Positions 27,790-53,980 of a stretch of DNA of 64,000 nt are shown piece by piece (the first letter of the stretch is position 1; each line of letters starts with the position of its first letter). A program made the position numbers and the translations under genes. The notes beneath the pieces were generated by a model. It saw only the letters and a list, made by a program, of their open reading frames with translations. It was not told where the DNA came from and searched no databases. The stretch is taken from the NCBI RefSeq assembly GCF_004010195.1, contig NC_057718.1, positions 8,476,494 through 8,540,493 of the forward strand. The letters are read 5' to 3'. This DNA comes from Chiloscyllium plagiosum. Taxonomy: Eukaryota.

Positions 27790-27920
27790 AGGAACAAATT
27801 ATTGCAGATGCTTGAATCTGTTCTAAAAACAACAAATGCTGGAGGTCACAGCGGGTCAGACAGCCTCCACAGAGAGAGAACAAAGTAACGTTTCGAGTCT
27901 AGATGATTCGTCATCAGATT
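27790..27920 (-). mobile_element. PLE terminal repeat (family C type) with hammerhead core
   Basis: Minus strand CTGATGAcgaatcatctagactcGAAAcgtt at 27887-27917. Confidence 0.6.
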
Positions 27921-28021
27921 TGGTTTTAAGTTAAGAACTTGCCAAGATTAAAATTTCTTTCTACTCTCACTTAAAACAATATTATCATTTTCTTATTAGG
28001 TTCAATGGTTATTTACAACCA

Positions 28022-28186
28022 GGATTGGGAGGAGCCGGTGTTGGACTGGGGTGTACAAAGTTTAAAAATCGCAAAACACCAGGTTATAGCCCGACAGGTT
28101 TAATTGGAGGCACTAGCTTTCGGAGTGCTGCTCCTTTGTCAGGTGGTTGATGACCTGATGAAGGAGCAGCGCTCCGAAAGCTAGTT
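28022..28186. mobile_element. Mini PLE fold-back (family B) with opposed hammerhead cores
   Basis: 28111-28145 and 28152-28186 are inverted copies; the plus copy reads gacCTGATGAaggagcagcgctccGAAAgctagtt. Confidence 0.8.
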
Positions 28187-29012
28187 TTACTTGTTCTAGA
28201 TAAGGAATGCTCTCAGAATAAACTAAAATACGGAGCATAGGCAGCAGCTTCACTTGATGATGTTTGATAATTGGATGAGATCATTTGAATTAGAAATTTG
28301 GCCAAATTTGCAGCACCCCTATTCACACCAACTTGAAATCCATTTCAGTTAGAATAATGCTAGACATTAATATTTTTCGCCTCACCCTGAAATTCTGCAT
28401 TATTTCAAACATCTAAATAGCACATTGACAGCTATTCAATCTTGACAGTTACATTACCCAAACAATTCCTAGCATTCTCACTAATGCACTCCCCTTTACT
28501 TTGAGTAGGAATTGATACATAAAGCAAAACAAGATTGCCATTGGAGGAGCAATATCCTCTCCCCCATTGGTGAGACAATACTGTCCACAATGGAGAAAAA
28601 GCAAGCTTTTGGTGCAGCTATGGGCAATTTAAGCGGACTTCAAGCAAGAATTGTATAGGCATAATCTTTTTCATCTCTTCTCCCTCTTGGGCTGCAGACA
28701 CTAATTGTGGACAGAAATGTACGAGCTAATCCTGTCCCTTTTTCAATGCAACTTGTGATCAGTTGAAATTCCTTAATCAGTGCAGAAGGAGGATGAGAAT
28801 GACAGTGATGGTGCATTATCTGACTCTTGCAACTATCAACTCAGATACTGACATTATTCATCCTTGAGAGGCGAAGGTAGAGGTGGGATTTGCACATGTG
28901 GTAGCTTATTTGATACAAATATACAGGTTATAAGGGTTGATGTAGGTGGTAGTTTGCCTGATCTGGAATATTGTGAGCAAATTTGGTCCCCTTGTTTATG
29001 GAAAGATGGAAA

Positions 29013-30918
29013 CCAGAAGGACAAAAAGGGGACATGAGATTGCTTTGGCAAATAGAGTTAAGGAGAATCCAAAGGATATTTACAAATACATGAAGGACAA
29101 AAGGGTAACTAGGGCGAGAATAGGGCCCGAAAATATGTTGCTGGAAAAGCGCAGCAGGTCAGGCAGCATCCAAGGAGCAGGAGAATCGACGTTTCGGGCA
29201 TGAGCCCTTCTTCAGGCCCTCATGCCCGAAACGTCGATTCTCCTGCTCCTTGGATGCTGCCTGACCTGCTGCGCTTTTCCAGCAACACATTTTCAGCTCT
29301 GATCTCCAGCATCTGCAGTCCTCACTTTCTCCTCGAAGAGAATAGGGCCCCTCAAAGATCAGCAAGCCAGCCTTTCTGTAGAACTGCAGGGGATGAAGAG
29401 GATACTAAACAAGTATTTTGCATCAGTGTTTACTGTGGAAAAAGACATGGAAGGTATAAAATGTAGGGAAATAGATGGTGACATTTTGAAAAATGTCCAT
29501 ATTACAGAGGAATAAGTACTGGATGTCTTGAAATGCATAAAAGTGGATAAATCCCCAGGACCTGATCAGGTGTACCCTAGAACTCTGTGGGAAGCTAGGG
29601 AAGCAAATGCTGGGCCCCTTGCTGAGGTATTTGTATCATCGATAGTCACAGGTGAGGTGCTGGAAGACTGGAGGTTGGCTAACGTGGTGCCACTGTTTAA
29701 GAAGGGTGGTAAGGACAAGCCGGGGGATTATAGATCGGTGAGCCTGATGTTGCTGGTGGGCAAGTTGTTGGAGGGACAAGATGTACATGTATTTGGAAAG
29801 GCAAGGACTGATTATGGATAGTCAACATGACTTTGTGCATGAGAAATCATATCTCACAAACTTGACTGAGTTTATTGAAGAAGTAACAAAGAGGATTGAT
29901 GAGGGCGGAGTGGTGGACATGATCTTTATGGACTTCAGTAAGGCGTTCGACAAGGTTCAACATGGAAGACTGGTTAGCAAAGTTAGAATGTCATGGAATA
30001 CAGGGAGAACTAGCCATTTGGATCAAAGATAGAAGACAGAGGGTGGTGGTGGAGGGTTGTTTTCTAGACTGGAGGCCTGTGACCATTGGAGTGCTATAAG
30101 GATCGGTGCTGGGTCCACTACTTTTCGTCATTTATATAAATGATTTGGATGTGAGCACTAGAGGTATAGTTAGTAAATTTGCAGATTACACCAAAAGTGG
30201 AGGTGTAGTGGATAGCAAAAAAGGTTACTTCAGATTACAATAGAATCTTGATCAGATGGGCCAATGGGCTGAGGGGTAGCAGAATTTAATTTAGATAAAT
30301 GTGAGTGGCTGCATTTTGGGAAAGTAAATCTTAGCAAGACTTATACACTTAATGGTCTGGTCCTGGAGAGTGTTGCTGAACAAAGGGACATTGGAGTGTG
30401 GGTTCATAGCTCCTTGAAAGTGGAGTCGCAGGTAGATAAGATAGTGAAGAAAGCGTTTGGTATGCTTTCCTTTATTGGTCAGAGTATTGAGTACAGGAGT
30501 TGGGAGGTCATGTTGCGGCTGTACAGGACATTGGTTAGGCCACTTTTGGAATATTGCATGCAATTCTGGTCTCCTTCCCATTGGAAGGATGTTGTGAAAC
30601 TTGAAAGGGTTCAGAAAAGATCTACAAGGATATTACCAGGGTTTGAGGATTTGAGCTATAGGGAGAGGCTGAATAGGCTGGGGGTGTTTTCCCTAGAGCA
30701 TCAGAGGCTGAGTGGCGATCTTATAGAGATTTATAAAATCATGAGGGGCATGGATAGGATAAATAGACAAAGTCTTTTCCCTGGGGTTGGAGAGTCCAGG
30801 GAAGGGTTTGGAGGGATATGGGCCGGGTGCTGGCAGGTGGGACTAGATTGGGTTGGGATATCTGGTCGGCATGGACGGGTTGGACTGAAGGATCTGTTTC
30901 CGTGCTGTACATCTGTAG
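29013..30918 (+). mobile_element. CR1/HER1 LINE ORF2 remnant (RT to 3' end)
   Basis: KSPGPDQVYPR, DWRLANVVPLFKKG, MDFSKAFDKV, LYRTLVRPLLEYC; frameshifted. Confidence 0.95.
29129..29337. mobile_element. Mini PLE fold-back (family A), 209 bp, perfect 13-bp TSD
   Basis: gagaatagggccc at 29116-29128 and 29338-29350; 76-bp arms at 29129-29204 and 29219-29294 with one mismatch. Confidence 0.9.
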
Positions 30919-32029
30919 GACTCAAAAGAAAGCTAGTGCTTCCAAATAAACCTGTTGGGCTATAACCTGGTGTTGTGTGATTTTTAACTTACAACCAGAA
31001 AGCTCCCAAAAGCTCACATCTGTGAAACTAGACATCAGAACCAAACACAGAAGATGCTGGAGAAATGTTTCAAGACGAGAAGTATTAATTCTGTTTCTTT
31101 TTCCACCAGACCTGCTGATGTTCTCCAGCGTTTTCTGTGTTTGTTTCAGATATCCGGCATCTGCAATATTTTGCTTTGATTCAAGAACATCTGAAACAGG
31201 GGCCACTCAAGAAAATCATATTTTATCTGATTATGGCTTTGACTCCACTTTCCTGGTGGTCCACTCACCCTCTCCCATGCTCCCCAACCCATTGCAAATA
31301 AACCTCGACCCCCTTCTCTGTCGAAAATCTGGCTAACTCAGCTTTGAATACACTGACTGGCTCTGTCTATACTAGTCTCCAGAGAGAAGAATTTCAAACA
31401 CTAATTCCAAACATCTCTGAGAGAAGAAGTGCTTTGTCATCTCCATCTTTCATGGGAAACCCTTTAATTTGAAATTATGCCTCCTGGTTATATATTTCTC
31501 CATGAGGTGAGACACTTGCTCAGTCTCTCCCCTGTCTAACCACCTCAGTTATGTATTTATATACTAAAAGATCTCATTCCTTTTGACAGCAAACTGTAGT
31601 GGCAAAGTTGCTCAATCTTTCCTTGTAGGGATCAAATCACCCATCCTGGAAATTAGCCCAGAGAACTTTCTCTGAGCTGCTACTAATTCAAGTATATTCA
31701 TCCTTAAATAAGAGAAACAAACATATGCAGCACTTTAGATGTGGATTCACCAATTTCTTTTGCCATAAGGCATGGGAGCAGATGTAGGCCATTCAGCCCA
31801 TCGAGTCTGCTCTGCCATTCTGATCTAATGATCCTCAACTTCCTCTTTTCTAATTTCCCCATGATCCTTTACTGAGTAAAAATCTCTCTATTTCAGCTTT
31901 GAATATACATAAGGTCCCAGCTTCAACAGCCCTCTGTAGTAAAGAATTCTATAGATTCACAACCATCTGAGTGAAGAAATTCCACCTCATTTCTGTCTTA
32001 AATGTGCAACCTTTTATTCTGAGTTTTTT

Positions 32030-32320
32030 TTAGTCTACATTCCCTATATTGCGGAAACAGGCCTTTCAGACCCAACATCACCCTGCTGAAGAGCAATCCA
32101 CCCAGACCCATCTCCCTCTGACTAATGCACCTAACACCATGGGCAATTTAGCGTGGCAATTCCATCTGCCCTGCACACCTTTGGATTTGGGGAGGAAACC
32201 CACACATACACGGGGAGAATGTACAAACCCCATACAGGCAGTCACCCGAGGCTGGAATCGAACCTGGGTCCCTGATGCTGTGCGGCAGCAGTGCTAACTG
32301 CTGAGCCACTGTGCCACCCT
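32030..32320 (-). mobile_element. HE1/V-SINE nested in an older CR1 3' end (~31765-32430)
   Basis: SINE head and core on the minus strand; the flanking CR1 tail sequence resumes after it. Confidence 0.8.
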
Positions 32321-32533
32321 AAATTTTCTCCTCTGGTCTTGGACTCTTCCACAAGGGGAAACAACCTCCTGACCTGTATACTGTCAAGACCTCAAGAATT
32401 TTGTATGTTGCAATAAGGTCACCCCTCATTTCTCTATGTTTTGTAAAACAAATTTGTAAAAGTACATTAGAAGAGATTTCAACTCAACTATTATAGTAAG
32501 TGCAACAAAATTCAACTTGCTCAATACAATATA

Positions 32534-32748
32534 CAGGTCGTTCTGTTATAATGCGCATTTCGTTAATATGAATTCGTTATAATGTGATTGACAAATTGGG
32601 GACACTGTTTCTACAGCCCATACTTTTAAAATATGTGTTGGTTGTAGCGCAATTACATCGCCAATACTTTAAGCACTGTTTCTAAAGCACGATTTTTTTA
32701 CATCGTGGGGTTGCACAAGAACACATCGTGTTATAGAAGAACTAGCTG
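32534..32748. mobile_element. Tc1/mariner (Tigger-type) MITE, 215 bp
   Basis: TA on both sides (32532-32533, 32749-32750); imperfect ~22-bp TIRs caggtcgttctgttataatgcg / cgtgttatagaagaactagctg. Confidence 0.75.
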
Positions 32749-33169
32749 TATTCCAATACGATTGTAATAAACTTAATATTTACTAAGCACATGACATGTC
32801 AGGTATTCAGCAGAAGGGAAAAGCATTTTGAATTGGGAATTACACAAAAAATGCAATAGGTATAATATTTTTCTCTATCCATGTACCCTTCAGAGATGCC
32901 TCAATACCTTTTCAATGCACTTTACACATTCCATGTCAGGCATGTAGCCAGAAGGGCTCTACTGCTCACAGCCTCATAGTGTATTATGGTTGACTGACTT
33001 TCGGTAGCTTCCATTCCTCTCTGTACCTGCTGCCCCAAACCTTACTGCATTCATTGTTAGAATCCATTAAATAGAATTCAAATCCATGCTTTTATGTGGG
33101 AGCTTTATTTCAATTAACTACACTTTGTAAAACTCAGATGTCACTGATTACTTTTCTGTCATGTAAATA

Positions 33170-33510
33170 GGGAGGCAATGGCCTAGTGGTAGACTGTTAA
33201 CCCAAAGAGCCAGGTGATGCTCAGGGAGTTTGGGCTTGAATCCCACCATGGCAGATGGTGTAATTTGTATTCAATGTTTTAAAAATCTGGAATTAAAAGT
33301 CTAATGATTGTCAGTTGTTGGAAAAACCCATCAGGTTCACTAATGTCCTTTAGGGAAGGAACCTGCCATCCTTACCTGGTCTGGCTTACATGTGACTCCA
33401 GACCCACAGCAATGCAGTTGACTTTTAACTGCCCTCTGGGCAATTAGTAATGGGTAATAAATGTTGGCTTTGCCAGTGATGCCCTCATTCCATGAATGGA
33501 TTTTTAAAAA
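33170..33510 (+). mobile_element. tRNA-derived SINE sharing its 3' tail with the old CR1-group LINE
   Basis: A box tggcctagtgg, B-box-like ggcttgaatccc; body nearly identical to 38421-38765; older copies at ~13207, ~42612 and ~44230. Confidence 0.85.
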
Positions 33511-34339
33511 TCCAGTAACCTGTCCAGTAAAATGAGTTATTGATTTTTTAAAATTCATTCATGGGACCAACCTGTTCAAAGATGTTATAGCACACCTCTG
33601 GAGCAGGAGGAGCCTGAACCTGGGCATCCAGGCTCAGAGGTGGTAACGCTACCACTGCACTATAAAATCCCTTTCTTTCATCCCCTATCAATCATCCGAC
33701 TGCACTTGGTATTCCCTGTTAGTCCTGAGTATGCATAGATTCTGAGGTCAGATGAAATTGAGCATTTTCAGGCTACTAACTCCCCAGATTTATGCAAATA
33801 CTTCTCACCCAATTAACTTGTAATTGATAAATCCTTCACCTCTTCCCTCATTCCATTGGGTCTCAGATGCTCCTTCAGACCATCTTAGAAAGCCTTGGGC
33901 TGCACCTTGGTGTGCTACACCAAGTCAAGGACAATGCCTTGCATTGGATGACCAAAGAAGACTTGAAAGCCCTCCAGGAGCAGTTGCTGCTTGCCTCAAT
34001 GTGCATCCTTGTGACTGGCACAGAGCTCAGACTCAGCCACTCTCCTATTCAGCTGTGGCCAGACATTCAACTTGAGTACTCCATCCCTGTGGCAAAAATG
34101 GTCAATATTCTGTTTTCTTTCTGGATCACTTGTAGCTGGATGCTAACTTTTCATGATTCATGTACTTGATAGCCTGCAGTTCTGATCGAACAATTGGCAG
34201 TTGCTAAGTACAGCTCCCTGGCAAGAATGCCTTGAAATCACAAAGGGATTGCTCGCATGCACATCACACATTATCCAACTGCACCATGTTCCAAGCACCT
34301 CACAGCTTGCAATCACTATTACAACATAGCGAACATGGT

Positions 34340-34605
34340 AGCCAATGCGCATACATCAAGATCCCATAAGCAGCTGTTAAATACATTACCTGTAATGTTT
34401 ACTTTAATGTCAGTTGTTGATTGAGGTATAAATATTTTCCAGGGGACAGAGCACCTAGTTGAGAGTGTGGTGCTGGAAAAGCATAGTAGGTCAGGCAGTA
34501 TCCGAGGAGCAGGAGAATCTGATCTCCAGCATCTGCAGTTCGCATTTTCTCCTCCCGACAGAACACCTACTCTTCTTTGGGTAGTGCCAGGGGATCTGTA
34601 AAAAT
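34340..34605 (-). mobile_element. Deu-SINE fragment split by a 99-bp mini PLE (34458-34556)
   Basis: TSD gacagagcaccta (34445-34457) / gacagaacaccta (34557-34569). Confidence 0.75.
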
Positions 34606-35029
34606 CAAAGCCTAAAACCTTTGAAACGGCAATAACAGTCATTTTACATGTGATTCTGATAAATGAACAAGTATAATACATTCATTCTATTACAGTCTGA
34701 AAGCTAAATTGATAGATCTTCCATTTTAGTAGCAATTTGTCTTAATTAATTCTCATCAATAATGATTTGACTGTTCAAACTGAGGAAGAAACATATTTCA
34801 AATCTGCTGACGCACCATTTTGATTATGGAGAATAGGCACTTACAGTTCCAATTTGATTTCAAAAGATTAATGTAATGCATATTCGATCATCTGTGTCTG
34901 TTTACCCTTCTAAATGAACTGTAACTTATTGAAATTGTGTAGCACAATTTGCTGCCGCACATTTCCCAACTGCTGTTAGAATTACAATTCAGATCAACTT
35001 GAGTTTGGGGCAATTTAGTGGATGCAAGA

Positions 35030-35390
35030 ATCATTTGTGATCAAATGGATTCTGCATGGCAGGATGTGTCTGAGGGGCAGGTGGACATTTGCAAGGCTGC
35101 CTTGTCGAAATATAAATGGAGATATTGAGGAAGAAAAAGGAGTCAGAGATGGACCAGGTGAATGTGAGAACGCAGTGGAAACTGAAGTTGAATCAATAAA
35201 CTTTTCCAATTCTGGAGAGGGGAGGGAAGCAGCACCAATGTAATCATCAATATACCGCAGGAAGAGTTGTGGGCGGGAGCCTGAGTAGGGCTGGAACAGG
35301 GAATGTACCATGTCTCCTACAAAGAGACAGGCATAACTGGGGGTCCACGTGGGTACTCACAGCTACCTGTTTGACCTGAAAAAGGATTAT
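35030..35390 (-). mobile_element. PLE reverse transcriptase fragment
   Basis: ORF 35015..35311 contains PQLFLRYIDDYIG. Confidence 0.8.
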
Positions 35391-36204
35391 CAGATTAAAC
35401 ATGACCTCATTGAATGGGGACAGATTCAATGGGCTGAACGGCCCATTTCAACATTTAAGTCTTATGGTGTAATAGTTTTGAGGTGAATGAAGCCTTATTT
35501 ATCACTTCTGGTTGTATTTACACACTCAGGATAACATCAAGACTAATGTGGTTCCAGGGTCAGAATGGCTCCCCACTCTCGAATTTGTGTGGCTTGTTTT
35601 CAAAGTGTTATCACTTTTGAAGTCAGCCACTGCTGCAGAACAAATGCAGAGCATCTAAAATCTGGCACAATGGTAAATGTCATCTATAATTGCCAACTGT
35701 AAAAATGATTCAGAGGATGACACTCTTTGCCAAAAATATTTAACATAGCCACCAAAACAACCATCTAAACCAATAAGACAAGTTAATTACACCGCCAAGT
35801 GAACAACCACGAGAGAATGGATATCTGTCTTGGTGTTTCTTGCTTTGTCCTGGTGGGAAGAATGTTCTGGAAATCAAGCCCCACTATTTCACGAGCCATC
35901 AGCAATGTGAAATATGACAAGTTGAATCAATGCCTGACAGTAACCATGATCTAAGATAAAAAGAAACTCACAACAGCTTTCATCAATGTGTAAGAAAACA
36001 AATGAAAATATTTTTATCATAACACTATCCTCCAACATATGACAGAACTGGATTATTAATTATTCATGTCAAACTTAAATTAGATCTCCTTTAAATCTAA
36101 TCACTCACGCATTCATTCACACAGTGGATGTACAAGACAGAAAAGACAGGTTTTCTTTTTAGCAATCATGGATGGCAAATATAAACAAAAAGGCACAAGA
36201 TAGT

Positions 36205-37333
36205 GTCAAAGAGTCATAGAGATGTACAGCATGGAAACAGACCCTTCAGTCCAACTCGTCCACGCCAGCCAGATATCCTAAATTAATCTAGTCCCATTTG
36301 TCAGCACTAGGCCCATATCCCTCCAAACCCTTCCTAGTCATGTATCCATCCAGATACCTTTTAAATATTATAATTGTACCAGCATCCACCATTTCTTCTG
36401 GCAGCTTATTCCATACATGCACCACCCTCTGCGTGAAAACGTTGCTGCTAATTCCTTTTAAATCTTTCCACTCTCACCCTAAACCTATGCCCTTTAGCTC
36501 TGAACTCCCCCATCCCAGGGAAAAGATCTTGTCTATTAATCCTATCCAAGCCCCTCATGATATTATAAGTCTTTATGAGGTCACCCCTCAGGCTCTGATG
36601 CTCCAGGGAAAACAGGTGTAGTCTATTCAACTTCTCCCTATAGCACAAACCCTGGCAACATTCTTGTAATGTTTTTCTGAACACACTTTCAAGTTTCACA
36701 ATATCCTTCCTGTAGGAAGACCAGAATTGCACGGAATATTCCAAAGATGGCCTGACCAATGTCCTGTGAGCCACAACATGCCCTCCCAACTCCTGCACTC
36801 AATACTGTGACCAGTAAAGGGAAGCATACCAAACACCTTCTTCACTATCCTATCTACCTGTGACTCCACTTTCAAGGAGTGACTCCACTTTCAAGGAGCT
36901 ATGAACCTGCACTCCAAGGTTCTCTTGTTCAGCAACACTCCCTCGGACCTTACCATTAAGTGTATAAGTCCTACTAAGATTTGCTTTACCAATGTGCAGC
37001 ACCTCATATTGACCTAAATTAAACTCCATCTGCCACTCCTTGGCCCATTTGCCTATCTGATCAAGATCCCGTTGTACTCTGAGGCAACCTTCTTCGCTGT
37101 CCACTACACCTCCAATTTTGGTGTCATCTGCAAACTTACTAACTGTACCTCTTATGCTCACATCCAAATCATTGATATAAATGACCAAAAGCAGTGAACC
37201 CAGCACCGATCCTTGTGGTACTCCACTGGTCACAGGCCTCCAATCTGAAAAGCAACCATCCACCACCACCTTCTGTCTTCAACCTTCGAGCCAGTTCTGT
37301 AACCAAATGGCTAGTTCTCCCTGTATTCCATGT
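36205..37333 (-). mobile_element. CR1/HER1 LINE 3' portion
   Basis: VTSGVPQGSVLG...YINDLD...SKFADDTKIGG. Confidence 0.95.
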
Positions 37334-37839
37334 GCTGTGGATCAGAGTCCAATCCTAATGGAAATTTGAAGTCACTTTCTCAGTTTTTGTTTTTGTTTTG
37401 GCAACACCATCACATTGTTGAATGCAATGATCTTTAATTCAGCAGCTGATCAGTTAGACCTAGGTCTTGGCTTGATTTAGACATTTTCTTTCTTCCTTCA
37501 AAATGTTTTGGTGATATTTCTTTGCCATTTAAAAGAGAGAGGATGGATTTTGCTTGCTTGCAGGCTTAAAGCTCTGAGTCCTGATGGATCTCTCTCCTCC
37601 AGTTCAGTGATAAATGGCCACCTGCAACCATTGCCGTGCAGTCACTCTGAGGGTCCATATGCATGGAACAAAATGCCAACACCATGCTGATGCAGTCACT
37701 ATGGTTACTCCAGCTGCTGCCTTTGCAGGTCTGTGCTGCAGCTGAAGAAATTAGCCAGAATGTAACTTACAACCAACACAAACCCTGTTGATGGGCAGTT
37801 ACTGTTCTCAACTCAACAATCATTTCTCAACTCAACAAC

Positions 37840-38058
37840 CCAACGCCTCATCTTCCGACTCAGAACACTTCAACCCCAGGGCATCAATGAGGACTTCACC
37901 AGTGTCCTTCTCCACCCTGCCTCTATTCCTGATGAAGGGCTTTTGCCCGAAACGTCGATGTTCCTGCTCCTCGGATGCTGCCTAGCCAGCTGTGCTTTTC
38001 CAGCACCACTCTAATCTAGACACTGGTTTCCAGCATCTGCGGCCCTTGTTTTTACCTA
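37840..38058 (+). mobile_element. PLE 3' end (family A) with an intact hammerhead core at 37925-37960
   Basis: ttcCTGATGAagggcttttgcccGAAAcgtcga. Confidence 0.8.
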
Positions 38059-40766: not shown

Positions 40767-42198
40767 TCATAGAGTCATGGAGATGTACAGCATAGAAACA
40801 GACCCTTCAGTCCAACTCATCCATGCCAACCAGATAGTCTAGTCCCAATCTAGTCCCAATCCAACCAAATCTAGTCCCACCTGCCCGCACCCGGCCCATA
40901 TCCCTCCAAACCCTTCCTATTCATATACCCATCCAAATGCCTCTTAAATGTTGCAATTGTACTAGCCTCCACCACTTCCTCTGGAAGCTCATTCCATACA
41001 CATATCATCCTCTTTGTGAAACAATTGCCCATTAGGTCTCTTTTATATCTTTCCACTCTCACCCTAAACCCTCTAGTTCTGAACTCCCCTGTCCCAGGGA
41101 AAATACCTTGTCTATTTACCCTATCCATGCCCCTCATGATTTTATAAACCCAACAGCCCCAGCCTATTCAGCCTCTTTCTATAGCTCAAATCCTCCAACA
41201 CTGGCAATATCCTTGCAAATCTTTTCTGAACCCTTTCAATTTTCACAACATCCTTCCAATGGGAAGGAGACCAGAATTGCACGCAATATTCCAACAGTGG
41301 CCTAACCAATGTCCTGTACAGCCACAACATGACCTCCCAACTCCTGTACTCAATACTCTGACCAGTAAAGGAAAGCATACCAAACGCCTTCTTCACTATC
41401 CTATCTACCTGTGACTCTACTTTCAAGGAGCTATGAACCTGCATGTCAAGGTCTGTTTGTTCAGCAACACTCTCTTGGACCTTACCACTAAGTGTATAAG
41501 CCCTGCTATGATTTGCTTTCCCAAAATGCAGCACCTCGCATTTATCTAAATTAAACTCCATCTGCCACTCCTCAGCCCATTGACACACCTGATCAAGATC
41601 CTGTTGTAATCCGAGGTAACCTTCTTCGCTGTCCACTACAACTCCAATTTTGGAGTTATCTGCAAACCTACTAACTATACCTCTTATTCTCGCATCCAAA
41701 TCATTTATCTAAATGATGAAAAGTAGTGGACCCAGCATCGATCCTTGTGGCGCACCACTGCTCAAAGGCCTCCAGTCTAAAAAACAACTCTCCACCACCA
41801 CCCTCTGTCTTCTACCTATGTGCCAGTTCTGTATCCAAGTGGCTAGTTCTCCATGTATTCCATGAGATATAACCTTGCTAATCAGTCTCCCATGGGGAAC
41901 GTTGTTGAATGCCTTACAAAAGTCCATATAGATCACATCTATCACTCTGCCCTCATCAACCCTCTTTGTTACTTCTTCAAAAGGTTTGTGGGACATGATT
42001 TCTCACGCACAAAGCCATGTTGATTATCCATAATCAGTCCTTGCATTTCCAAATGCATGTACATCCTATCCCCCAGGATTCCCTCCAACAACTTGCCAAC
42101 CACCAACGTCAGGATCACCAGTGTATAGTTCCCTGGCTTGTCCTTACCACCTTTCTTAAACAGTGGCACCACGTTAGCCAACCTCCAGTCTTCTGGCA
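40767..42198 (-). mobile_element. CR1/HER1 LINE ORF2 remnant
   Basis: ORFs 41142..41699, 41709..41996 and part of 41969..42481 carry RT motifs. Confidence 0.95.
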
Positions 42199-43644: not shown

Positions 43645-45045
43645 CCTGTGCCCTGATAAATGACCCTAGTTGGTGCTGGTTGGGTTCCAGTTGAACAGGT
43701 GCCTGCAATATCTGAACTGAGGACCTTAACCTCCATGTGCACGTCTAATCATTAGGATCTAACAGGTTATTGAACTATGAGGCATCTACGTTAAACTTGA
43801 TGTTTGATTGTGGTGATTTTCCTTTAAGGGAAGACAAACTGATACTTCTTGCTCAGGGTAACCGGCGTTGCTTCGGCCAATGGTAACTCCAACAGCTCTC
43901 CATCTCAGATAAAGGGAGAAAAATTGCAGGGTGATGGTGAAAGGAATGTGACCCATCATTGCCTCTTACAGAGAGCCAGCATGAGTTTGATGGACTGATT
44001 GCCCTCCTCCAGTGCTGTGGGTTATGGTATTGAATGAGGAACCGACAATACCAGCCGTTCTAAGGTCTGGTGCACGGTGAACAGTATTGGCACACTCATC
44101 GTGGCACTGACTCTGGTTCCACGTTCCCTGCTGTACACAGACTTTGGAGGTTCATGCAGTCTGAAAGAAAATTAAAAGCAATGCCACTAGGAATCCACAG
44201 GTGCTGACTAATGCTCCAACAACAAATCCAAATCCCACCATGGCACACAAGTATTTAAACCTGATGGAGAAATGTGCCTTTCAATAATTTTCACAAAACT
44301 ACTGGATTATCATGAAGGTCTAACATGTCCCTCAGGGGACGAAATCTACTTTCCCCACTCTGTATGGCTTACAGGTGACTCCAGAGATGACCTGGCAAAT
44401 CACTGAGTTATACCAAACAAAGAAAAGAGGCTGTTGATGTATCTAGGTCACATGGACTGCAATGGACACTCACCAAAAGGACACTCACCACCACCATCTC
44501 AAAGGCATTTCAGGATGGGCAGTAACTGTTGGCTCAGCTGACAATGCCCATTTATAAAGAGCCAACACAAAACATCCAAGGACCCGCCCCAGGTGAGACA
44601 GAACTACACGAGTGTCATGTGGAGCAACAAGGGCTTTGGGAAAGGCAGGAGAGCTAGTTGTTTCAGTTAATTTGTGTTATTCTGTTTTTATCTGTTTGTG
44701 TGTTGTGGGCATTGTCTCTACCTATCCCTAGTTGCCTTGAGAAGGTGATGGCGAGCTGCCTTGTTGATACCCACAGCGCTGTGAAGGAAGGAGTTCCAGG
44801 ATATTGACCCATCAACACTGTTATGGACTAGGCCACACCACTCAGAACATTTTTAAGCAGGCAGCCCAGACCATAACTTTGCAATTTGCTTCAGTAAGTG
44901 TACAGTGAAAATTACCCAGAGTGATGGAGCTAGATTGACTACCAGGTTTTAAAACAGCAAAAAATGTATTCACAAGAGTACACAATGAAACAAGAACAGG
45001 ATAAAGAACCCCTCCAGAACTTAGTCTATCCAAACTAGACTTAAT

Positions 45046-45610
45046 AAAGTAATTATTCTACAACTCTGTTAGGTGTGATGTTGCGTAATGGGATTGCCTC
45101 TGGAAATCTAGTTGTCCAATTCAGTATTGTTAATCAATACATATTCTCACTTTTTGTTTGAGGTAGGGGACCTATGCAATCAATCAAGACTTTTGTGGAA
45201 GGTTCCTCAAATGCTGGAATAGGTATTAAAAGTGCAGAGTTTATTACTGCCTGTGGTTTTCCGATTAGCTGACATGTACGACACGTCTGGCAAAATTAAA
45301 CTATATCCTTGTGTAGTCCAGGCCAGTAAAATCATCTTTGTATTCTAGCCTGTGTTTTCCTCACCCCTAAATGACCTCCAAGTGGTAGCTCATACACCAC
45401 TCGCAGCACCTCCTTTCTATACCCTACTGGTAAAACAATTTGATGAATCTCTGCCCATTTCTCATCTTCTTGAATGTGTGATGGTCTCTATTTCTTCACT
45501 AAGACATCATTTGCTAAATAATAACACACAGGAATGCATTCACTTTCTTCCTCTGTAAATGCCCTTTGATATGTGTTATAACTCCTCATCTTTCTGCTAT
45601 AATTCAATCA
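45046..45610 (-). pseudogene. Retroviral-type integrase N-terminal part with in-frame stops (absent from the ORF track)
   Basis: Manual translation: GGHLGVRKTQARIQR*FYWPGLHKDIV*FCQTCRTCQ...KVLIDCIGPLP...TTRFPEAIPLRNIT. Confidence 0.9.
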
Positions 45611-46200
45611 GCTATGCAGAGCGAAAGATACTTGTACTTTTGCCTATTTGCTCCTTCATTGTGCCAATTATCTGACCAGAAAAGGTCTCAGATAATGCTA
45701 TGTCAGGTGCCTTATCTGTGCCTTTTAATCCTTTCTGCATCAGCTTGTGCCTCTGTGATCTTGTGATCACACAGTCAGGGAAAGTTCCTGGATAAATGTC
45801 CTTCATTTCTTCAGTTGCCTGCGTCTCCACTAGCTTTTCAATTAGAGTAGGCAGTATACCTACTGGTGAATCAGCTATATCATTTGCAAGGACAAATTGT
45901 ACTCCTGGAGCTGACAGTTTGTCCAGTACTCCTACCATAAAGTCTTCACTCTTCTCTGGAGTCTCCAGCTTCACTTCACATAACTGAGCACTTTTTGTCT
46001 TACCATGAATTCCTGTTGCCAGTACCTTCTCTGGTAATGGTCCCTCAGGAGTACATATCTTCTCATCCTTCAGCATTCCAGACTGAGAGGATCCTGTGTC
46101 CCTTAATATTGTAACCTCCTTACCAACTGCTCTAGGCCTATGTGAATAAACTTTACCCTTACATGTATATTTTTTAAGCAAATCTGGCACTTGTTTCTTA

Positions 46201-46510
46201 GACCATAAGACCATAAGACATAGGAGTGGAAGTAAGGCCATTCGGCCCATCGAGTCCACTCGCCATTCAATCATGGCTGATGCGCATTTCAGCTCCACTT
46301 AACAGCGTTCTCCCCGTAGCCCTTAATTCCTCTAGACAACAAGAATCTATCAATCTCGGCCTTGAAGACATTTAGCGTCCCGGCTTCACTGCACTCCGTG
46401 GCAATGAATTCCACAGGCCCACCACTCTCTGGCTGAAGAAATGTCTCCGCATTTCTGTTCTGAAATGACCCCCTCTAATTCTAAGGCTGTGTCCACGGGT
46501 CCTAGTCTCA
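46201..46510 (-). mobile_element. CR1 LINE 3' end (TCTTATGG tail) nested in the LTR element
   Basis: ORF TRTRGHSLRIRGGHFRTEMRRHFFSQRVVGLWNSLP; CpG-rich, so probably young. Confidence 0.9.
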
Positions 46511-47216
46511 TGGACTGAAATTGACTCTGGAAGCCAAACCGAGTTTGATGAACTCATAACCATCAGCCCCTTCAGCTGCTAACCTTGCTGTTTTAACTCT
46601 CTGCTCTTCCACATGAGTTCACACTACTTCCTCACTGAGCCTACCCTCAGACTTTATCTCTAGCCTTTTAAGCTGACTTTCCTTTTTGATTGTCAGTCTT
46701 TGAAGTTCTTAATCAACCTCTGATCATCTTGTACACTCTGAGGCAGTTGTCTAACTTCCTTTGTGCTTTTTGTTACTAGTCCATCAAAACTTCCAGGCTT
46801 GTCTGGTTTTCCTACATCTGGCTTTCTCCTAGCCCACCAACACTGTGATTTTGTGTGGCCCACTTTATTATAATGAAAACACCGGAGCTTTTTAACTTCT
46901 TTGTCCCCCTCAAGGGTTTCTTTTTTACCCGGTGGTAATTTATCCTTATAATCTTCACTGAGATCTACCTTTCCCTTTCCCCATGAGGATTTCTCTTTGC
47001 CCCAATTTCTATCCCTCATGGACTGAAATTGACTCTGGAAGCCAAACCGAGTTTGATGAACTCATAATCATCAGCCCCTTCAGCTGCTAACCTTGCTGTT
47101 TTAACTCTCTGCTCTTCCACATGAGTTCACACTACTTCCTCACTGAGCCTACCCTCAGACTTTATCTCTAGCCTTTTAAGCTGACTTTCCTTTTTGATTG
47201 TCAGTCTTTGAAGTTC
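46507..47216 (+). repeat. 202-bp direct repeat (46507-46708 and 47015-47216)
   Basis: The two copies differ at one position seen (ataacc / ataatc). Confidence 0.95.
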
Positions 47217-48469
47217 AAAAGCTCTCTTTTTCTTTCCCTACTCTCTCTTTTTCCCTCTCTTCTGCTTTTAATCATAACTCAATCTGTTTCATTTCTGCTG
47301 CCCTTTCCTTATCTCTTGCCTCTAACTCAAGCTGCTTCACTTGCAATTGAATTCTTGCCATCTCTATAGATTCTGATGGTTTCTCCTGCAAGTTGAAATG
47401 CTGAGCTACTGCTGTAATTATCTCTCCTTTCCTCACAGAAGCAGGCAGTTCCAATTCCAGCTTCTTTGCTAATTCCTGCAGCTTGGTCTTATTCACTTTT
47501 GCAAAACTCCCAAAGTCACCGCATCCACATCCAGAAAACCTCTGGCAACTAAACGAGCCATTACTATCCCAAGCTTTGTCCACCCAATCAAACTAACACC
47601 AGAAATAAAGACACTAGCACCCACCACTCACTGTTTAAAATCCCACAAATAGCCCCCAATCTGTTATGGATGAGGCCAGATTACTCAAAACATTCTTAAG
47701 CAGGCAGCCCAGACCATAACTTTGCAATTTGTTTTGGTAAGTGTACAGTGAAAATTACCCAGAGTACGGTAGCAAGGTTGACTACCAGGTTTAAAACAGA
47801 CAAACATTTATTCACAAGATTACACAATGAAACACAAAGAACAGAATAAAAAAACCCTACACAACTCAGTCTATCCAAACTAGGCTTAATTATGCTGTTC
47901 CGAATATACACAACAGTCCCAATAAGCAAACCTTCTTGAAACACAGCTAAAAAATGGAACAGATGCTTACAGGTTGAAGTTAGAAGAGCAGAAAGAAAGA
48001 GAGTTTGTTTCCACACAGCTCACTGTTGAAATCCCAACCAGTTCTGGACTGAACTAAACTGCTCAGCTAGAGAGCTGACCACTCCCCTTTCATTCTACAG
48101 GTCACTTCTAAAACATGACCAATTTGGCCTGAAGTCTCATCTCTCTACATATAAACAAAAGGCCTCTCAAAATCCTTTTCACCCCTGTACCAAACCAATC
48201 TAATCAGCACTGAGAGCGGTTTATTACACCTCTGAAAAAAATTAAATAGAGAGTATCCTTGAGAAAAGGAAGAGCCTTTAGTAAAAAGAACCCTGCTTTG
48301 TGACAACACTGAAGGAACAGCAATATATTTCCATGCCCGAACTGAGTGGCTTGGAGGAGATCTTGCAGGGAGTGGACATAGAATAGGGGGAAGAACAACC
48401 TTCCCCTCTACACTTGCACTATTTTAGATTTATGCATGTAAGCTGAGTGAAAAGGCATTAACTTTCTGA

Positions 48470-48905
48470 CACCAAAACAGAATTAGCTGGAGCAACTCAG
48501 CAGGTCTGGCAGCATCTGAGGAGAGAAAGTGCAGTTAACATTTCAGGTCCAGTGACCCTTCTTCAGAACTCATTGTTGCTAGAAAAAGGTTGGTATATAC
48601 GCTAAAGATGAGCGGAAGGTGAAGGAGTAAACGATAGCTGGAGATGAAGCTGAGAGAGAGAGAGTGGGAGAGAGAGAAAGAGAGAGAGAGAGAGAGAAAG
48701 AGGAGAGCCAGAGAAAACAGCAGTTGGTTAGATGAAGCATTGAATAATAGTGAGCCAGGGAGAAGGAGAAGCTGCTAATGAGGAGCATTATATGGCAAAA
48801 CTGAGCTGAATGTGGTGAATGCAGTCCATGTGGTGGCAAGACCTGGTGTTTGGGGATGGGGGAAGGACATGGAAAAGATACCTGGGTCCTCAAATTATTG
48901 AACTA
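48470..48905 (-). mobile_element. PLE 3' end (family C) with hammerhead core 48533-48570 and a (GA)n tract
   Basis: Minus strand agttCTGAAGAagggtcactggacctGAAAtgttaact. Confidence 0.7.
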
Positions 48906-49214
48906 ATTCTCTGACGTTGTGTTTCAAATTGCAGCACAGCGTAAATCAGCCTGTTAGTGTGGAGAGCCTGGCCTCAGCTTTATTCGAGGAAGTGAGTTAA
49001 CACCTTGTCATTCGCCTTGCACACTATCTTTGGCTCACCTGTCAACATGTTTTATCGTTGTCTGTGTTATTTGGGGGTTTCACACCCCTGTCAACATGTT
49101 GGCGCCATTTAAATGAACTCATTTTCACAGTTTGGAACTGTAACATTCAATGGAGCATAAAAAAGACATTCAGATTATTATATCCATACAGGATCTTTCA
49201 GTAAGGTTACCAAT

Positions 49215-49842
49215 GGCTCTTGCCTCTTCAGTCTCTACCACCAATGTCACGTACTGCATCCATTGTATCCAGTGTGGTCTCCTCTACATCAGGGAGACAG
49301 GATGCCTTCTTGCAGATCGTTTCAGAGAGCATCTTGGGACACCTGCCCCCACTGACCCCACTGCCCTGTGGCTGAACACTTCAAATCCCCCACCCACTCC
49401 ATCAAGAACATGCAGGTTCTGGGCCTCCTCCACCACAAAACCGTTACCACCCTATGCCTGGAGGAAGAGCGCCTCATATTCCGCCTTGGGACCCTGCAAC
49501 CACATGGGATAAATGTGGATTTCAGCTGCTTCCTCATTTCTCCTTTCCCCACATTATCCCAGTTCCAAGCCTCCAACTCAGCATCACCCTCCAGACCTGT
49601 CTATTACTCCCCCCTCTGACCTATCACCTTCTCCCTCACCTTCAACCACCGATCACATTCCCCCCAACCCTACCTGCCTCCCATTTATCTTTCATCCGTG
49701 ACCCATACGTATCATTTCTGATGAAGAGCTTATTCTCGAAACATCGATCCTCCTGCTCCTCAGATGCTGCCTGATCTGCTGTGCTATTCCAGCATCACAC
49801 TCTCGACCCTGTTCTCCAGCACCTGCAGTCCTCACTTTCTCT
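49215..49842 (+). mobile_element. PLE GIY-YIG endonuclease end plus terminal repeat (family A)
   Basis: NVTYCIHCIQCGLLYIRETG...RFREH; LEEERLIFRLGTLQPHGINVDF; hammerhead-like core at ~49718. Confidence 0.9.
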
Positions 49843-50223
49843 GACAGCCTGTAAATCCTTGTTGTGGCCAACTCAGTTGGAACTTCCTACCCGAAACTGG
49901 ACACATTCTGTTGCCCTTTTGACAGATGGGATCACCATCAGATTGATGATGGTGCAGGGAACCACACAATTAGAAATCATGCTTTCATTATCATGGAATC
50001 CCTCCAGTGTGAGAGCAGGCCATTCGGCCCATTGAGTCAACACTGACCCTCCGAAGTGCATCCTTCCTAGACCCATCCATGGCTAACCCATCAAACGTGT
50101 ACATACCCAGACACTATGGCACAATCATGATATGGAGGTGCCTGTGTTGGACTGGTGTGTACAAAGTTAAAGATCACACAACCCCAGTGTTAAAAATCAC
50201 ACAACATCAGGCTTATTTGAAAG

Positions 50224-50258
50224 CACTAGCTTTCGGAGCACCGCTCCTTCATCAGGTG
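50224..50258 (-). ncRNA. Minimal type I hammerhead ribozyme motif (equivalent intact copy at 53623-53657, minus)
   Basis: CAC-CUGAUGA-A-GGAGC-GGU-GCUCC-GAAA-GCUA-GUG: complete core, helix I CAC/GUG, 5-bp helix II, palindromic AGCU in place of helix III. Activity untested. Confidence 0.75.
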
Positions 50259-50407
50259 GCTGTGGAGTATAAGATCATAAGACACAGAACTTATAGGAGA
50301 AGTTTACAGTGTAATGAAACTGAAATTATATGTTAAAAAAGACCTGAATTGTTTGTTAAGTCTCTCATCTTTTTGAATGACCATGCTGGTTTCAGTTCTT
50401 TCATATG

Positions 50408-50675
50408 GGTGGCATAGTGGCATAGTGGTTAGCACTGTTGCCTCAGTGCCAGAGACCGGGGTTCAATTCCCGCCTCAGGCGACTGACTGTGTGGAGTTTG
50501 CACGTTCTCCCTGTGTCAGCGTGGGTTTGCTCCAGTTTCCTCCCACAGTCCAAAGATGTGCAGGTTAGGTGAATTGGCCATGCTAAATTTGCCCGTAGTG
50601 TTAGGTCAGGGGTGATGGGTCGGTGTGGCTTTGTTGGGCCGAAGGGCCTGTTTCCACATTATAATCTAATCTAAT
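50408..50675 (+). mobile_element. HE1/V-SINE nested in the PLE left arm
   Basis: Head, core and (TCTAA)n tail; absent from the right arm. Confidence 0.88.
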
Positions 50676-53207
50676 ATGTAAATCTCAGAACTTCTTTAAA
50701 GTTACATTCTCAAGTGAACTTTAACAATAGGTGCCATGTCGGCCCAGATAATGCATTGAAGGTGTGAGGTGCCCTGTGTGAGGCTGTTTGTGCCCCAATG
50801 TTCAGACTGACTTTAATCTAAAAAAGGGACTTACAGAATCTTACATGGATTCATGCAGTTTTTGAGCAAAATAAAATGTAATTCTGCAAGTAGAAACTCC
50901 CCCCAGCAAACATATATGTGTGCATGTGGATCTGTGTGTTTGGGGTGGGGGTGGTTATGAGTGTCTATGAGACAATGTGTGTATGTGTGTGCATGTGAGT
51001 GTAAAGGGGTATAAATCTGTGAGAGGGTGCGTGTGAGAGTGTGGAAGTGTATGTGTGAGTATATGAGAGAGAGCTTGTGTTATCAGCCTCTGTTCAGTCA
51101 CTTTGAGTTGTTGCCTGTCCCGAAATCCGCCTTAGAGGATGGTCAACCGAAGGTCCGAGGTTGAATATCTTGTACCGCTGAAGTGTTCTCTGACTGGGAG
51201 GGAACACTCCTGTCTGTTGATTGTTGTGCAGTGTCCAGTCATCCTTTGCCGTAGCTCGGTTTCACCAATATACCATGCCTCGGGGCATCGTTGCTTGCAG
51301 TGTATGAGGTAGATAACGGTGGCTGAATCACATGAGTACCTGCCATATAAATGGTGAGAGGTGTCCCCTGGTGGTGTCCGTTTCAACACTCTGACATGTC
51401 TTGCAGCATCTGCTATGACAAGGTTGTATGATATTGTCCTGAAAGCCGGGCAATTTGCTACGAACAATGACCTGTTTGAGGTTTGGTGATTGTCTAAAGG
51501 TCAGAATTGGTTGGGGAAGGTCTTGGCGAGGTGCTCATTCTCATCAATAATCTGTTGCAGGCTGCGAAGAACATGGCATAGTTTTTCGGCTCCTGGTAAG
51601 TCCAGGTGATGGCAATGGGATCCTGTGTGAGAACCTTTCTGGCTAAGTCAAAGGCATCTTGAAACCCATTGTACAGGGGATCCCAGCTTCTGTCACAACA
51701 CTACAGATTTCTTACAGAAACTCAGCACCCACGGACCAGTTGAACCAGGAACATTCCTCATCACAATGGATGTTTCAGCACTCTACACCAGCATCCCCAC
51801 AGTGATGGCAACAGCCTCAGTACTCAACACCAACCATTGCCAATCTCCAAACACTCTCGTACAACTCATCCGCTTTATCCTTGACCACAGTGTTTTCACC
51901 TTTGACAACCAGTTCTTCATTCAGGCACACGAAACAGCTATGGGGACCAAGTTTGCACCCCAATATGCCAAATGTTTCATGCATAGGTTCAAACAAGACT
52001 TCTTCTCCACGCAGGACCTCCAACCAAAAGGTATATTGACGACATTTTCTTCCTCTGGACCCATGGCAAGGAATAGTGATATCAAAGAGTTGTATCCTAC
52101 CATCAAATTCACCGTGGACTCTCTCTAGTATCTGTCTCATTCTTGGACATATGCATCTCCATCAAGGATGGGCACCTCAGCACCTCACTCTACCGCAAAC
52201 CCATGGATAACCTCACGATGCAACACTTTTCTAGCTTCCACCCCAAACATATTAAAACAGCCATCCCCTACGTACAAGCCCTACGCATACACAGGATCTG
52301 TTCAGATGAGGAGGAATGTGACAGGCACCCGGAAGTACTCAAGGATGCCTTCATAAGAACGGAGTACGTTGCTCAACTCATCGACCACCAGTTCCAATGT
52401 GCCACAGCAAGAAACGGTAATGACTTCTTCAGGAGACAAACACGAGCTGAAACCGGCAGGATACTCTTCGTTGTCCAGTATTTCCCAGGAGCCGAAAATC
52501 CATGCCATGTTCTTCACAGTCTGCAATGCATTATCAATGAGGATGAGCACCTCGCCAAGACCTTCCCCATGCCTACACTGCTCGACTTTAAACAACCATC
52601 AAACCTCAAACAGATCATTGTTCATAGCAAACTGCCTGGCTTTCAGGACAATACCATACAACCTTGTCACAGTAGACGCTGTCAGAGTGTCGACACAGAT
52701 ATCACCTTTACACATGGGGACACCTCCCACCACTTACGCGCAGGTACTCATGTGACTCAGCCAACATTGTCTATTTCATGCTCTGCAGGCTGGGATTCCC
52801 TGATGCATGGTACATTGGTGAGAATAAGCAGATGCTACGGCAACGGATGAATGGACACCGCACAACTATCAACAGGTGCTCCGGTTTCCTCCCACAATCC
52901 AATTAGTGCAGGTTAGGTGGATTGGCCACGCTAAATTGCTCCATAGTTAAAAGTCACACAACACCAGGTTATAGTCCAACAGGTTTATTTGGAAGCAATC
53001 GGAGAAAACTTCAGAGGGATATTTGATCTCGGACCTTTGGATGACCGTCCTCCAAGATGGACTTCGGGACAGGCAATAACGCAAGGTGGCCGAGCAGAGG
53101 CTGATAGCCAATTTCAGTACTCATAGGGATGGCCTCAACCAGGACCTTGGGTCCATGTCACACTACAGGTGACCACCATTGCACTATATACACACACAGA
53201 CATTCCT

Positions 53208-53241
<34 letters not shown>

Positions 53242-53980
53242 GGGGTGAATTTGTACTTGCAGAATTACATTTCATTTTGCTAAGCACTATATACACACAC
53301 AGACATTCCTACACACACGCACACGCAGACACACACGTGCACACACACACACACACATATAGGTTTGTGGGGTGAATTTGTACTTGCAGAATTACATTTC
53401 ATTTTGCTAAAAAAAACCTGCATGCATCCATGTAAGATTCTGCAATCCCCTTTTTTAGATTAGAATCAGCCTGAACATGGGGGCACAGACAGCCTCACAC
53501 AGGGCACCTCACACCTTCAATGCATCATCTGGGCCGACATGGCACCTATTGTTAAAAGTTAAAAATCACACAATACCAGGTTATAGTACAACAGTAGTAT
53601 AGTACAATAGTATAATTGCAAGCACTAGCTTTCGGAGCATCGCTCCTTCATCAGGTGGTTCTTCCAGTCCAACACCAGCATCTCTAAATCATGCCTACTG
53701 TTAAAGTTGACTTGAGAGTGTAACGTTAAAATATAGTTCTGGGATTTACGCATGAAAGAACTGAAATCAACATGATCATTCTAAAAGGTGAGAGACTTAA
53801 TAAACAATCCAGGTCTTTTTCAATCTATCATTTCAGTTGCATCACACTGTAAACTTTCGTTATAAATTTTATGTCTTACAATCTTATACTCCACAACCAC
53901 CTGATGAAGGAGCAGTGCTCTGAAAGCTAATGCTTCCAAATAAACCTGTTGGACTATAACCTGGTGTTGTGTGATTTTTA

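Follow-up and report, generated by a model that had tools for sequence, protein, structure and literature searches.

Penelope-like elements (PLEs) are defined by a reverse transcriptase (RT) fused to a GIY-YIG endonuclease, and dimer cleavage of PLE hammerheads has reportedly been described by Lunse, Weinberg and Breaker (RNA Biol). We analysed a 64-kb stretch of the Chiloscyllium plagiosum genome, hereafter the window (G000:C9:8476494-8540493, in a 3.56-Gb assembly of 101,977 contigs; CpG observed/expected 0.25), in which hammerhead-like motifs and PLE coding fragments are found together. Minimal hammerheads (min-HHRs) occur in the PLEs of fishes, coelacanth, amphibians and reptiles (PMC4209133). 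As described by Cervera and De la Pena in 2014 (PMC4209133), they have a CUGANGA...GAAA core, one unpaired nucleotide after A9, a G10.1-C11.1 pair, a short helix I and a palindromic 15.2-16.2 step without loop 3. They form several consensus families per genome with compensatory changes, and the motifs are mostly solitary or in opposite-strand pairs. The motifs of the window share all of these properties. In the schistosome families of the same work, helix II has 7-8 bp, whereas it has 4-5 bp here.

Two other systems are close to this one. In the Poseidon PLE PAc of Anolis carolinensis (Frangieh et al. 2024, PMC11167929), the motif lies ~100 nt upstream of the 3′ boundary of the insert, a tail is optional and the flanks at the insertion ends are AT-rich, as they are here; moreover, the double-strand priming of that element would explain the head-to-head pairs that we describe below. 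The two differ in that the open reading frame (ORF) of PAc starts inside the motif, whereas here the frame closes after 17 (family A) and 9 (family B) codons. The dimer-only hammerheads of newt satellite 2 and of viroids (Forster et al. 1988, cited in PMC6765202), and the vertebrate non-LTR (long terminal repeat) retrozymes, are likewise of type I, and their unstable, palindromic helix III requires a second copy of the motif. However, those have a genuine though short helix III stem with its loop, loops 1 and 2 that make tertiary contacts, and long tandem arrays, while here the copies are dispersed, loop 3 is missing and the window contains no array. We consider it very probable that the motifs are predicted minimal type I hammerheads of the 3′-terminal, or pseudo-LTR, part of PLEs, and that the window copies are relics.

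The layout was the same in every copy: the helix I 5′ strand, CUGANGA, one unpaired nucleotide (A), the helix II 5′ strand, a loop and the helix II 3′ strand, then GAAA, C/G, G/C, U, H and the helix I 3′ strand. Helix II comprises 4-5 perfect pairs with a loop of 3-5 nt and is closed by G10.1-C11.1, and helix I comprises 3-4 pairs with open ends, which is the type I arrangement. Both of these helices can be formed by a single RNA molecule. The unpaired nucleotide between A9 and helix II, which the earlier note on this DNA had not mentioned, was present in all 19 window copies and is usually an A; position 7 differed in 1 of 53 anchored genome copies. The full catalytic core (C3 U4 G5 A6 N7 G8 A9...G12 A13 A14, with A15.1-U16.1 and H17) was found in 12 window copies, and the cut-site triplets read GUC, CUA and GUU.

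Together with the three letters that follow it, the final A of GAAA makes a palindrome, ACGU in families A, C and D or AGCU in family B, and no base lies between its two halves (A15.1-C/G15.2-G/C16.2-U16.1). The helix III stem-loop of a classical type I hammerhead is thus absent; an intramolecular helix III is impossible, and pairing could occur only with a second copy. Folding only as dimers, as the earlier note had proposed, would therefore follow from the anatomy of the motif taken together with the literature. The decayed palindromes, ACAU and AUGU, are CpG transitions. These readings bear out the minimal type I architecture and the loopless, CpG-decaying palindrome of that note, and at all seven sites that it named we re-read the letters it had claimed.

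We counted 19 cores in the window (six of A1, four of A2, six of B, two of C and one of D), in agreement with the more than 15 intact or decayed cores claimed earlier. A relaxed scan gave 23 sites, comprising 17 family members and six chance-like ones, and two decayed additions, 24838- and 27891-, complete the count. Eight of the 19 lie outside the span that the note had covered (2375-, 5428+, 7949-, 9477+, 12667-, 24838-, 26998-/27041+ and 59997+). Chance origin of these cores is excluded. The pattern CTGANGA-N6-30-GAAA matched the window 21 times, against 6.61 +/- 2.61 (largest 14) in 100 dinucleotide shuffles. A strict descriptor required the core followed by a single additional nucleotide, a stem of 4 bp or more without mismatches, GAAA and an intact or CpG-decayed palindrome; it matched 12 times, whereas 200 first-order Markov simulations yielded no match at all (mean 0.0, maximum 0).

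The A1 hammerhead at 37929..37956 (+) reads CUGAUGA-A-GGGC-UUUU-GCCC-GAAA-CGUC, with core and ACGU intact and a GUC triplet. The one at 29188..29215 (-), CUGAAGA-A-GGGC-UCAU-GCCC-GAAA-CGUC, is also intact and is the long arm of a head-to-head pair, whose inverted arm at 29219-29331 (+) begins within helix II. Among the other A1 copies, 5428..5455 (+) has C3 changed to U with ACGU intact, 7945..7972 (-) has a palindrome CpG-decayed to ACAU, and 2371..2398 (-) is decayed, with G12 changed to A and the palindrome AUGU. A family A variant at 59997..60025 (+) has helix II GGGCG/UGCCC and ACAU, and its inverted partner arm lies at 59933-59992. The A2 copies are 49718..49745 (+; helix II GAG/CUC, ACAU), 26994..27021 (-; GAGC/GCUC, ACAU) with its head-to-head partner 27041..27068 (+; C11.1 changed to U, ACAU), and 9477..9504 (+; G12 changed to A), which lies within a solo mini-copy.

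The three intact family B copies, at 50227..50255 (-), 53626..53654 (-) and 28155..28183 (+), read CAC-CUGAUGA-A-GGAGC-NNN-GCUCC-GAAA-GCUA-GUG, that is, helix I CAC/GUG, helix II GGAGC/GCUCC, palindrome AGCU and triplet CUA. The last of them is head-to-head with a decayed inverted arm at 28114..28142 (-; G8 changed to A). Family B also includes 53901..53929 (+), where C11.1 became U by CpG decay, and 12663..12691 (-), with C at N7, C11.1 changed to U and the triplet CUU. Family C is represented at 48537..48566 (-) by AGUU-CUGAAGA-A-GGGUC-ACUG-GACCU-GAAA-UGUU-AACU, with the palindrome decayed to AUGU and a GUU triplet, and by a decayed copy from the motif scan at 24834..24863 (-).

The hammerhead at 27887..27917 lies on the minus strand and has ACGU, a GUU triplet and helix II GAAUC/GACUC with one A.C mismatch. 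The earlier note had rightly read it as a hammerhead site but had called it a variant of family C; because of its helix II, we assign it to a separate minor lineage, D. It is one of 39 genome copies, and its unpaired nucleotide is C, whereas the other 38 have A. There are hence at least five lineages, with helix II GGGC/GCCC (A1), GAGC/GCUC (A2), GGAGC/GCUCC (B), GGGUC/GACCY (C) and GAAUC/GACUC (D), so that the distinct and still paired helices described earlier hold, but not their number, which had been given as three.

The association with PLEs was established from coding sequence. At one genome locus (L001), two same-strand family B cores 2,517 nt apart flank three reading-frame pieces that total ~860 aa and contain a YVDD motif, and these direct repeats correspond to the partial tandem (pseudo-LTR) arrangement of PLEs. 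The 410-aa piece of this locus has 106 longer homologs (E ≤ 1e-10), whose precomputed domains are RVT_1 plus, in many, GIY-YIG; we confirmed both domains on two of the homologs, P0005 and P0012. A solved-structure search with two of the ORF pieces gave nothing useful. When the 106 proteins were compared with the window by tblastn, the best match (E = 3.5e-76) fell in the region 51611..53166 (+), a 5′-truncated, frame-broken coding region extending from the RT to the C-terminus. An inverted, also 5′-truncated C-terminal fragment at 51063..51599 (-) abuts it head-to-head. A C-terminal coding fragment lies at 49234..49532 (+), upstream of an A2 hammerhead, and a weak one at 8203..8325 (-; one match, E 3.7e-4), upstream of the hammerhead at 7945-7972; in addition to these, PLE protein matches by tblastn were observed at two smaller places in the window. 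The window PLE copy aligns with the endonuclease region of P0005, and Pfam calls no GIY-YIG on the broken copies themselves.

Hammerhead cores lie regularly downstream of these frames. The survey of PLE ends covered the window and 94 genome loci; the loci came from the first 1-2.3 Mb of one contig and from the window, and are thus a non-random sample of the genome. Among 12 assessable, well-supported PLE C-terminal ends, 10 had a same-strand core 137-804 nt downstream; one of the remaining two had a decayed core 92 nt downstream, and the other had none within 801 nt. The distance from frame to motif was ~150-230 nt for family A and ~460-800 nt for family B. In the window, the A2 core at 49718..49745 (+) starts 146 nt past the last PLE C-terminal match (49571; the strongest match is 49234-49532, +), and the A1 core at 7945..7972 (-) lies ~230 nt 3′ of the fragment 8203-8325 (-). 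The family B cores at 50227..50255 (-) and 53901..53929 (+) lie 804 nt 3′ of the fragment 51063-51599 (-) and 734 nt 3′ of the ORF end at 53166, respectively. In families A and B, the motif is hence located in the terminal repeat of an element with RT and GIY-YIG domains. The attribution of the hammerheads to PLEs, made beforehand from the letters, is upheld by these frame ends and by the domains of the homologs.

We then asked whether the helices covary, using our own parse of the helix pairs and genome-wide pattern counts; a cross-family MAFFT alignment was left unused, as it placed family B one column off register. Helix I is paired in each lineage in spite of different letters (AUUC/GA(U/A)U, CAC/GUG and AGUU/AACU). 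In helix II, G10.1-C11.1 is unchanged across lineages, while pairs 10.2 and 10.3 are G-C except that A-U occurs at 10.2 in A2 and D and at 10.3 in B; pair 10.4 is C-G, G-C or U-A. For pair 10.2-11.2, one pattern frame gave genome counts of 120,631 for G-C, 2,548 for A.C, 2,258 for G.U and 1,596 for A-U, the last against ~126 expected from the margins if the two sides were independent. Consensus families with compensatory changes are thus seen both in this four-state count and in the stems of the lineages.

The A-U excess reflects a single compensated change in a master lineage rather than repeated independent ones. Most of the 100 A-U copies listed have U7 and the loop UUAU, and their palindromes are mostly decayed; this class is one coherent, older subfamily, whereas the one-sided A.C and G.U classes are scattered over all subfamilies. 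Variation within family B, among 100 listed copies, is one-sided decay. Therefore, the covariation claimed in the earlier note is real between lineages, as the 10.2-11.2 counts indicate, but does not extend to the interior of a subfamily.

The same distinction emerged from the conservation of the core relative to its flanks, a comparison that the note had named as one test of its reading. The sites counted were non-CpG ones, in family A copies that were anchored on both sides. Within the main subfamily, 14 of 306 core sites (4.6%) and 81 of 1326 tail sites (6.1%) were off the majority, with no significant difference (p 0.34), which is neutral decay after insertion. Across subfamilies, the core was more conserved, with 21/477 sites (4.4%) off the majority against 204/2173 (9.4%) in the tail (Fisher p 0.0003); for N7 and the loop, the value was 62/265 (23%). 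Our first comparison, which had given 1.3% versus 17.4%, was dropped because it was biased: only copies similar across the core itself had qualified. CpG sites inside the motif, namely C11.1-G12 and C15.2-G16.2, were changed at 54 of 318 positions (17%), and the commonest lesions in the window, CUGAAA, CCAAAA, ACAU and AUGU, come from these CpGs. Since core and flanks decay alike in a given subfamily, mostly at CpG sites, the copies are dead relics. Therefore, constraint acted on the replicating lineages and not on the present copies. These data show that the window copies decay neutrally, fastest at the C11.1-G12 and C15.2-G16.2 CpGs, without function at the locus.

The genomic load of such motifs was estimated by pattern counts over the whole genome, with the reversed pattern as control. 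Cores ending in GAAACGUH (ACGU-type) gave 139,654 matches (control 523), and the family B core with helix II left free gave 41,100 (control 3). The 20-mer of the family A tail gave 166,246 matches, family C 3,152 and lineage D 39, each with a control of 0. The ACGU- and AGCU-type patterns together make at least 180,754 matches against controls of 523 and 3, which agrees with the very large dispersed load suggested earlier. The 2014 survey had found ~4,000 motifs in coelacanth and ~9,000 in Xenopus tropicalis (PMC4209133) with another descriptor, so that the figures are not strictly comparable.

The ends of the copies are informative about how they arose. We collected 96 unique family A copies from 360 kb by their tails only, and measured copy ends and junctions with a method blind to indels. 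Homology between copies ends 82-99 nt or, in a second class, 121-134 nt downstream of the core start; copies of the second class carry an optional extension of ~35 nt, and an optional tail of 30-40 bp has been published for PLEs (PMC8557442, accessible part). In the lizard PLE, reverse transcription begins ~110 nt downstream of the motif (PMC11167929), and the 3′ ends of the copies fit this start. Relative to the first core base, the 5′ ends lie at least 25 nt upstream in 17 copies, at -14 to -10 in 4, at -8 to -1 in 31, at 0 to +13 in 19, at +20 to +23 in 2 and at +28 to +46 in 16; the remaining 7 were misplaced by indels.

More than half of the family A copies collected by tail (55/96) are arms of head-to-head pairs, and the window contains three such pairs, at 26994-27068, 28114-28183 and 29116-29331. 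Whole pairs and solo mini-copies alike are flanked by target-site duplications of 13-19 nt, which were seen at 14 of the 30 loci of family A and at 5 of the 30 of family B. This search had no shuffled control; matches of at least 13 nt were estimated to arise by chance ~0.01 times per locus, and those of 10-12 nt, which are at chance level, were ignored. As the duplications bracket whole pairs, one pair corresponds to one insertion event. The solo mini-copy at 9475-9566 (~92 nt), which has an imperfect duplication, splits an unrelated RT-bearing repeat copy (9033-9635). Insertions that are 5′-truncated, carry a tail and adjoin an inverted copy are standard for PLEs (PMC8557442). The copies are thus relics of retrotransposition, 5′-truncated and present as solo mini-copies or as head-to-head pairs from single insertions.

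The head-to-head units at 29156-29267 and 28110-28188 form long, near-perfect hairpins, which gave sub-threshold Rfam microRNA matches (mir-3127, 37.6 bits against a gathering score of 82; mir-143, 27.6 against 60). We rejected the microRNA reading, these being merely hairpins of head-to-head units. Past the 3′ ends of units (29331-29333 and others), reads from other copies run into AT-rich sequence, as judged from a loose-end consensus, and this fits the reported AT-rich target preference of PLE endonucleases. At another locus (L002, 1719-2431 in G000:C1:17709500-17713500), a 357-nt unit is present in 2.0 copies with 96% identity and a minus-strand family B hammerhead in each; this tandem is either retrozyme-like or that of a PLE with an internal deletion.

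How would such motifs act in a living element? From the literature (PMC4209133; PMC11167929; and the accessible part of PMC6765202), two motifs in the RNA of an active element would pair through their palindromes and share a 4-bp helix III. The two could be drawn from tandem units or from two RNAs in a dimeric ribonucleoprotein of the element. Each motif would then cut after its GUC, CUA or GUU (H17), and cleavage would probably be aided by the element's own protein; protein-assisted cleavage has been reported for the lizard PLE (PMC11167929). RNAcofold of two units returned no double hammerhead, a kissing or pseudoknot-type fold of this kind being outside what the program can represent.

Several observations weigh against the hammerhead reading. 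The shared helix III is worth only -1.7 kcal/mol for ACGU and -2.5 kcal/mol for AGCU, and so the pairing in trans of dispersed transcripts of the same family, which the earlier note had envisaged, is unlikely without tandem copies or protein. In vitro, the activity of such motifs is low and dimer cleavage weak (PMC4209133). In vitro, the lizard PLE inserts without needing its ribozyme, and RNA ends at its cut site were not found (PMC11167929), while PLE clades without hammerheads proliferate well according to the accessible part of PMC8557442. The predicted start of the 3′ cleavage product (+28) coincides exactly with the start of only 2 of the 96 family A copies, so that cleaved templates have left no fossil trace. 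Poly(A) single-cell RNA reads over 27800-29400, a library type poorly suited to this purpose, had no ends at the cut sites and no position at which the starts or ends of many molecules accumulate. The Rfam hammerhead models found no match in the window, neither at the gathering score nor at E ≤ 10, which is expected because those models require helix III and the motif has no helix III stem-loop. Finally, families C and D are tied to PLEs by tails that resemble that of family A, and no adjacent reading frame was seen for them.

The read sets available for 27800-29400 were two poly(A) single-cell runs and two contig sets, of which one was DNA and the other was taken, as a guess, for RNA. Run X19, labelled as the same species, had 3,081 reads on the units of this interval, in both orientations, and 99% of them continue into unlike flanks and hence stem from other copies; X20 had none. 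Hammerhead copies are thus present in RNA, probably as passengers of longer transcripts. None of the data sets listed as containing the stretch is recorded as RNA.

The way the copies are joined raises the question of whether the sequence was kept as a pairing module, its likeness to a hammerhead being secondary; the palindromes, in the helix II hairpin and in ACGU/AGCU, would join two template RNAs, or nascent cDNAs, during an insertion primed on both strands. The 55 paired copies are joined at the motif. Of 24 longer arms, 23 end at -12 to 0 and the remaining one reaches -60. Among the shorter arms, 16 end at +1..+13 and 15 at +20 or beyond, and none at +14..+19; if ends were uniform, this gap would have P ~0.001 for the 27 arms whose ends fall within the motif. 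Besides, 31 of the 96 copies begin 1-8 nt before the core, and the lizard PLE nicks and extends both target strands, with catalytic ribozyme mutants inserting normally in vitro (PMC11167929). However, ten catalytic letters are invariant in five lineages while loops, N7 and flanks diverge, which simple pairing would not need; the 27 arms are a small, non-random sample with indels ignored, and the peak before the core could equally mark a transcription start site. We regard pairing in place of catalysis as quite unlikely. The same junctions would allow the hammerhead region to be a joint of PLE insertions besides being a ribozyme, with selection keeping the fold partly for pairing during integration. 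A discrete class of mini-copies and the longer arms of pairs begin 1-8 nt before the core, at the first helix I base, and the shorter arms break at the motif's two self-complementary parts, the helix II 5′ strand or loop and the ACGU/UCGA palindromes, never between; such a double role is conceivable, though we think it unlikely.

The hammerhead reading also has to be set against two others that concern the unit itself. The motifs could belong to short non-autonomous units of ~95-135 nt, resembling retrozymes or short interspersed elements, to which PLEs supply only the enzymes. Such units would account for the finding that only 17 of the 96 copies reach 25 nt or more upstream of the core, and for solo mini-copies with target-site duplications (9475-9566 and the loci L035, L044 and L056); the 357-nt repeat with family B motifs points in the same direction, as does a 2026 preprint that, in its accessible part, derives vertebrate retrozymes from PLE pseudo-LTRs (10.64898/2026.07.22.740005). 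Yet the same motif and tail follow PLE reading frames in 10 of 12 cases, no tandem array of hammerhead units is found in the 64-kb window, as non-LTR retrozymes would have, and extreme 5′ truncation is itself a published PLE hallmark (PMC8557442, accessible part). We consider these units very improbable as a separate explanation, and they overlap with the PLE reading rather than exclude it. An overlapping reading frame, starting at the AUG inside CUGAUGA, might also hold the letters constant, as the ORF of PAc begins in the motif (PMC11167929) and copies with U7 have ATG there. However, the most abundant family A subfamilies have CUGAAGA, without AUG; the ATG-opened frame closes at TGA in 100 of 100 listed family A tails, and our initial idea that this frame was closed only through CpG decay (CGA to TGA) was accordingly wrong; the family B frame stops at a UAG overlapping the CUA triplet; and the change from A1 to A2 alters both codons yet restores the base pair. 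Coding overlap is contradicted for families A and B, and overall we give it hardly any chance.

The window also contains other repeats. Six copies of another RT-bearing repeat lie at 9033-9635, 26316-26818, 30472-30921, 36206-36817, 40774-41368 and 55033-55557. The RT pieces at 36850-37278 and 41142-41708, where Pfam calls RVT_1, were considered as PLE and rejected, because none of the 106 PLE proteins matches them; this repeat is presumably LINE-like (long interspersed nuclear element). An Exo_endo_phos (endonuclease/exonuclease/phosphatase) fragment, a remnant of a LINE endonuclease, is present at 62148-62609 (-). A 30-nt tandem repeat at 22982-23164 (6.1 copies, 90% match) is unrelated to the hammerhead units. 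Two runs of N, at 11842-12341 (500 bases) and 25369-25802 (434 bases), both lie within repeat-rich stretches, and the open frames listed across them are artefacts.

The above results place the feature among the minimal hammerheads of PLEs, a class that has been published. This identification is correct but already known, since the extra nucleotide, G10.1-C11.1, the palindrome, the opposite-strand pairs and the optional tail have all been published (PMC4209133; PMC11167929; accessible part of PMC8557442). Minimal, dimer-dependent hammerheads are a published hallmark of PLEs in non-mammalian vertebrates, and the kind has been in print since 2014. With at least ~180,000 near-intact cores in a 3.56-Gb genome, the load of ribozyme motifs is among the largest relative to those in the papers cited. 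The four-way count of pair 10.2-11.2 provides clean evidence of selection to retain RNA pairing in the active lineages. Conservation between lineages together with neutral decay of the copies explains why a comparison of core and flanks within one family would wrongly refute the ribozyme.

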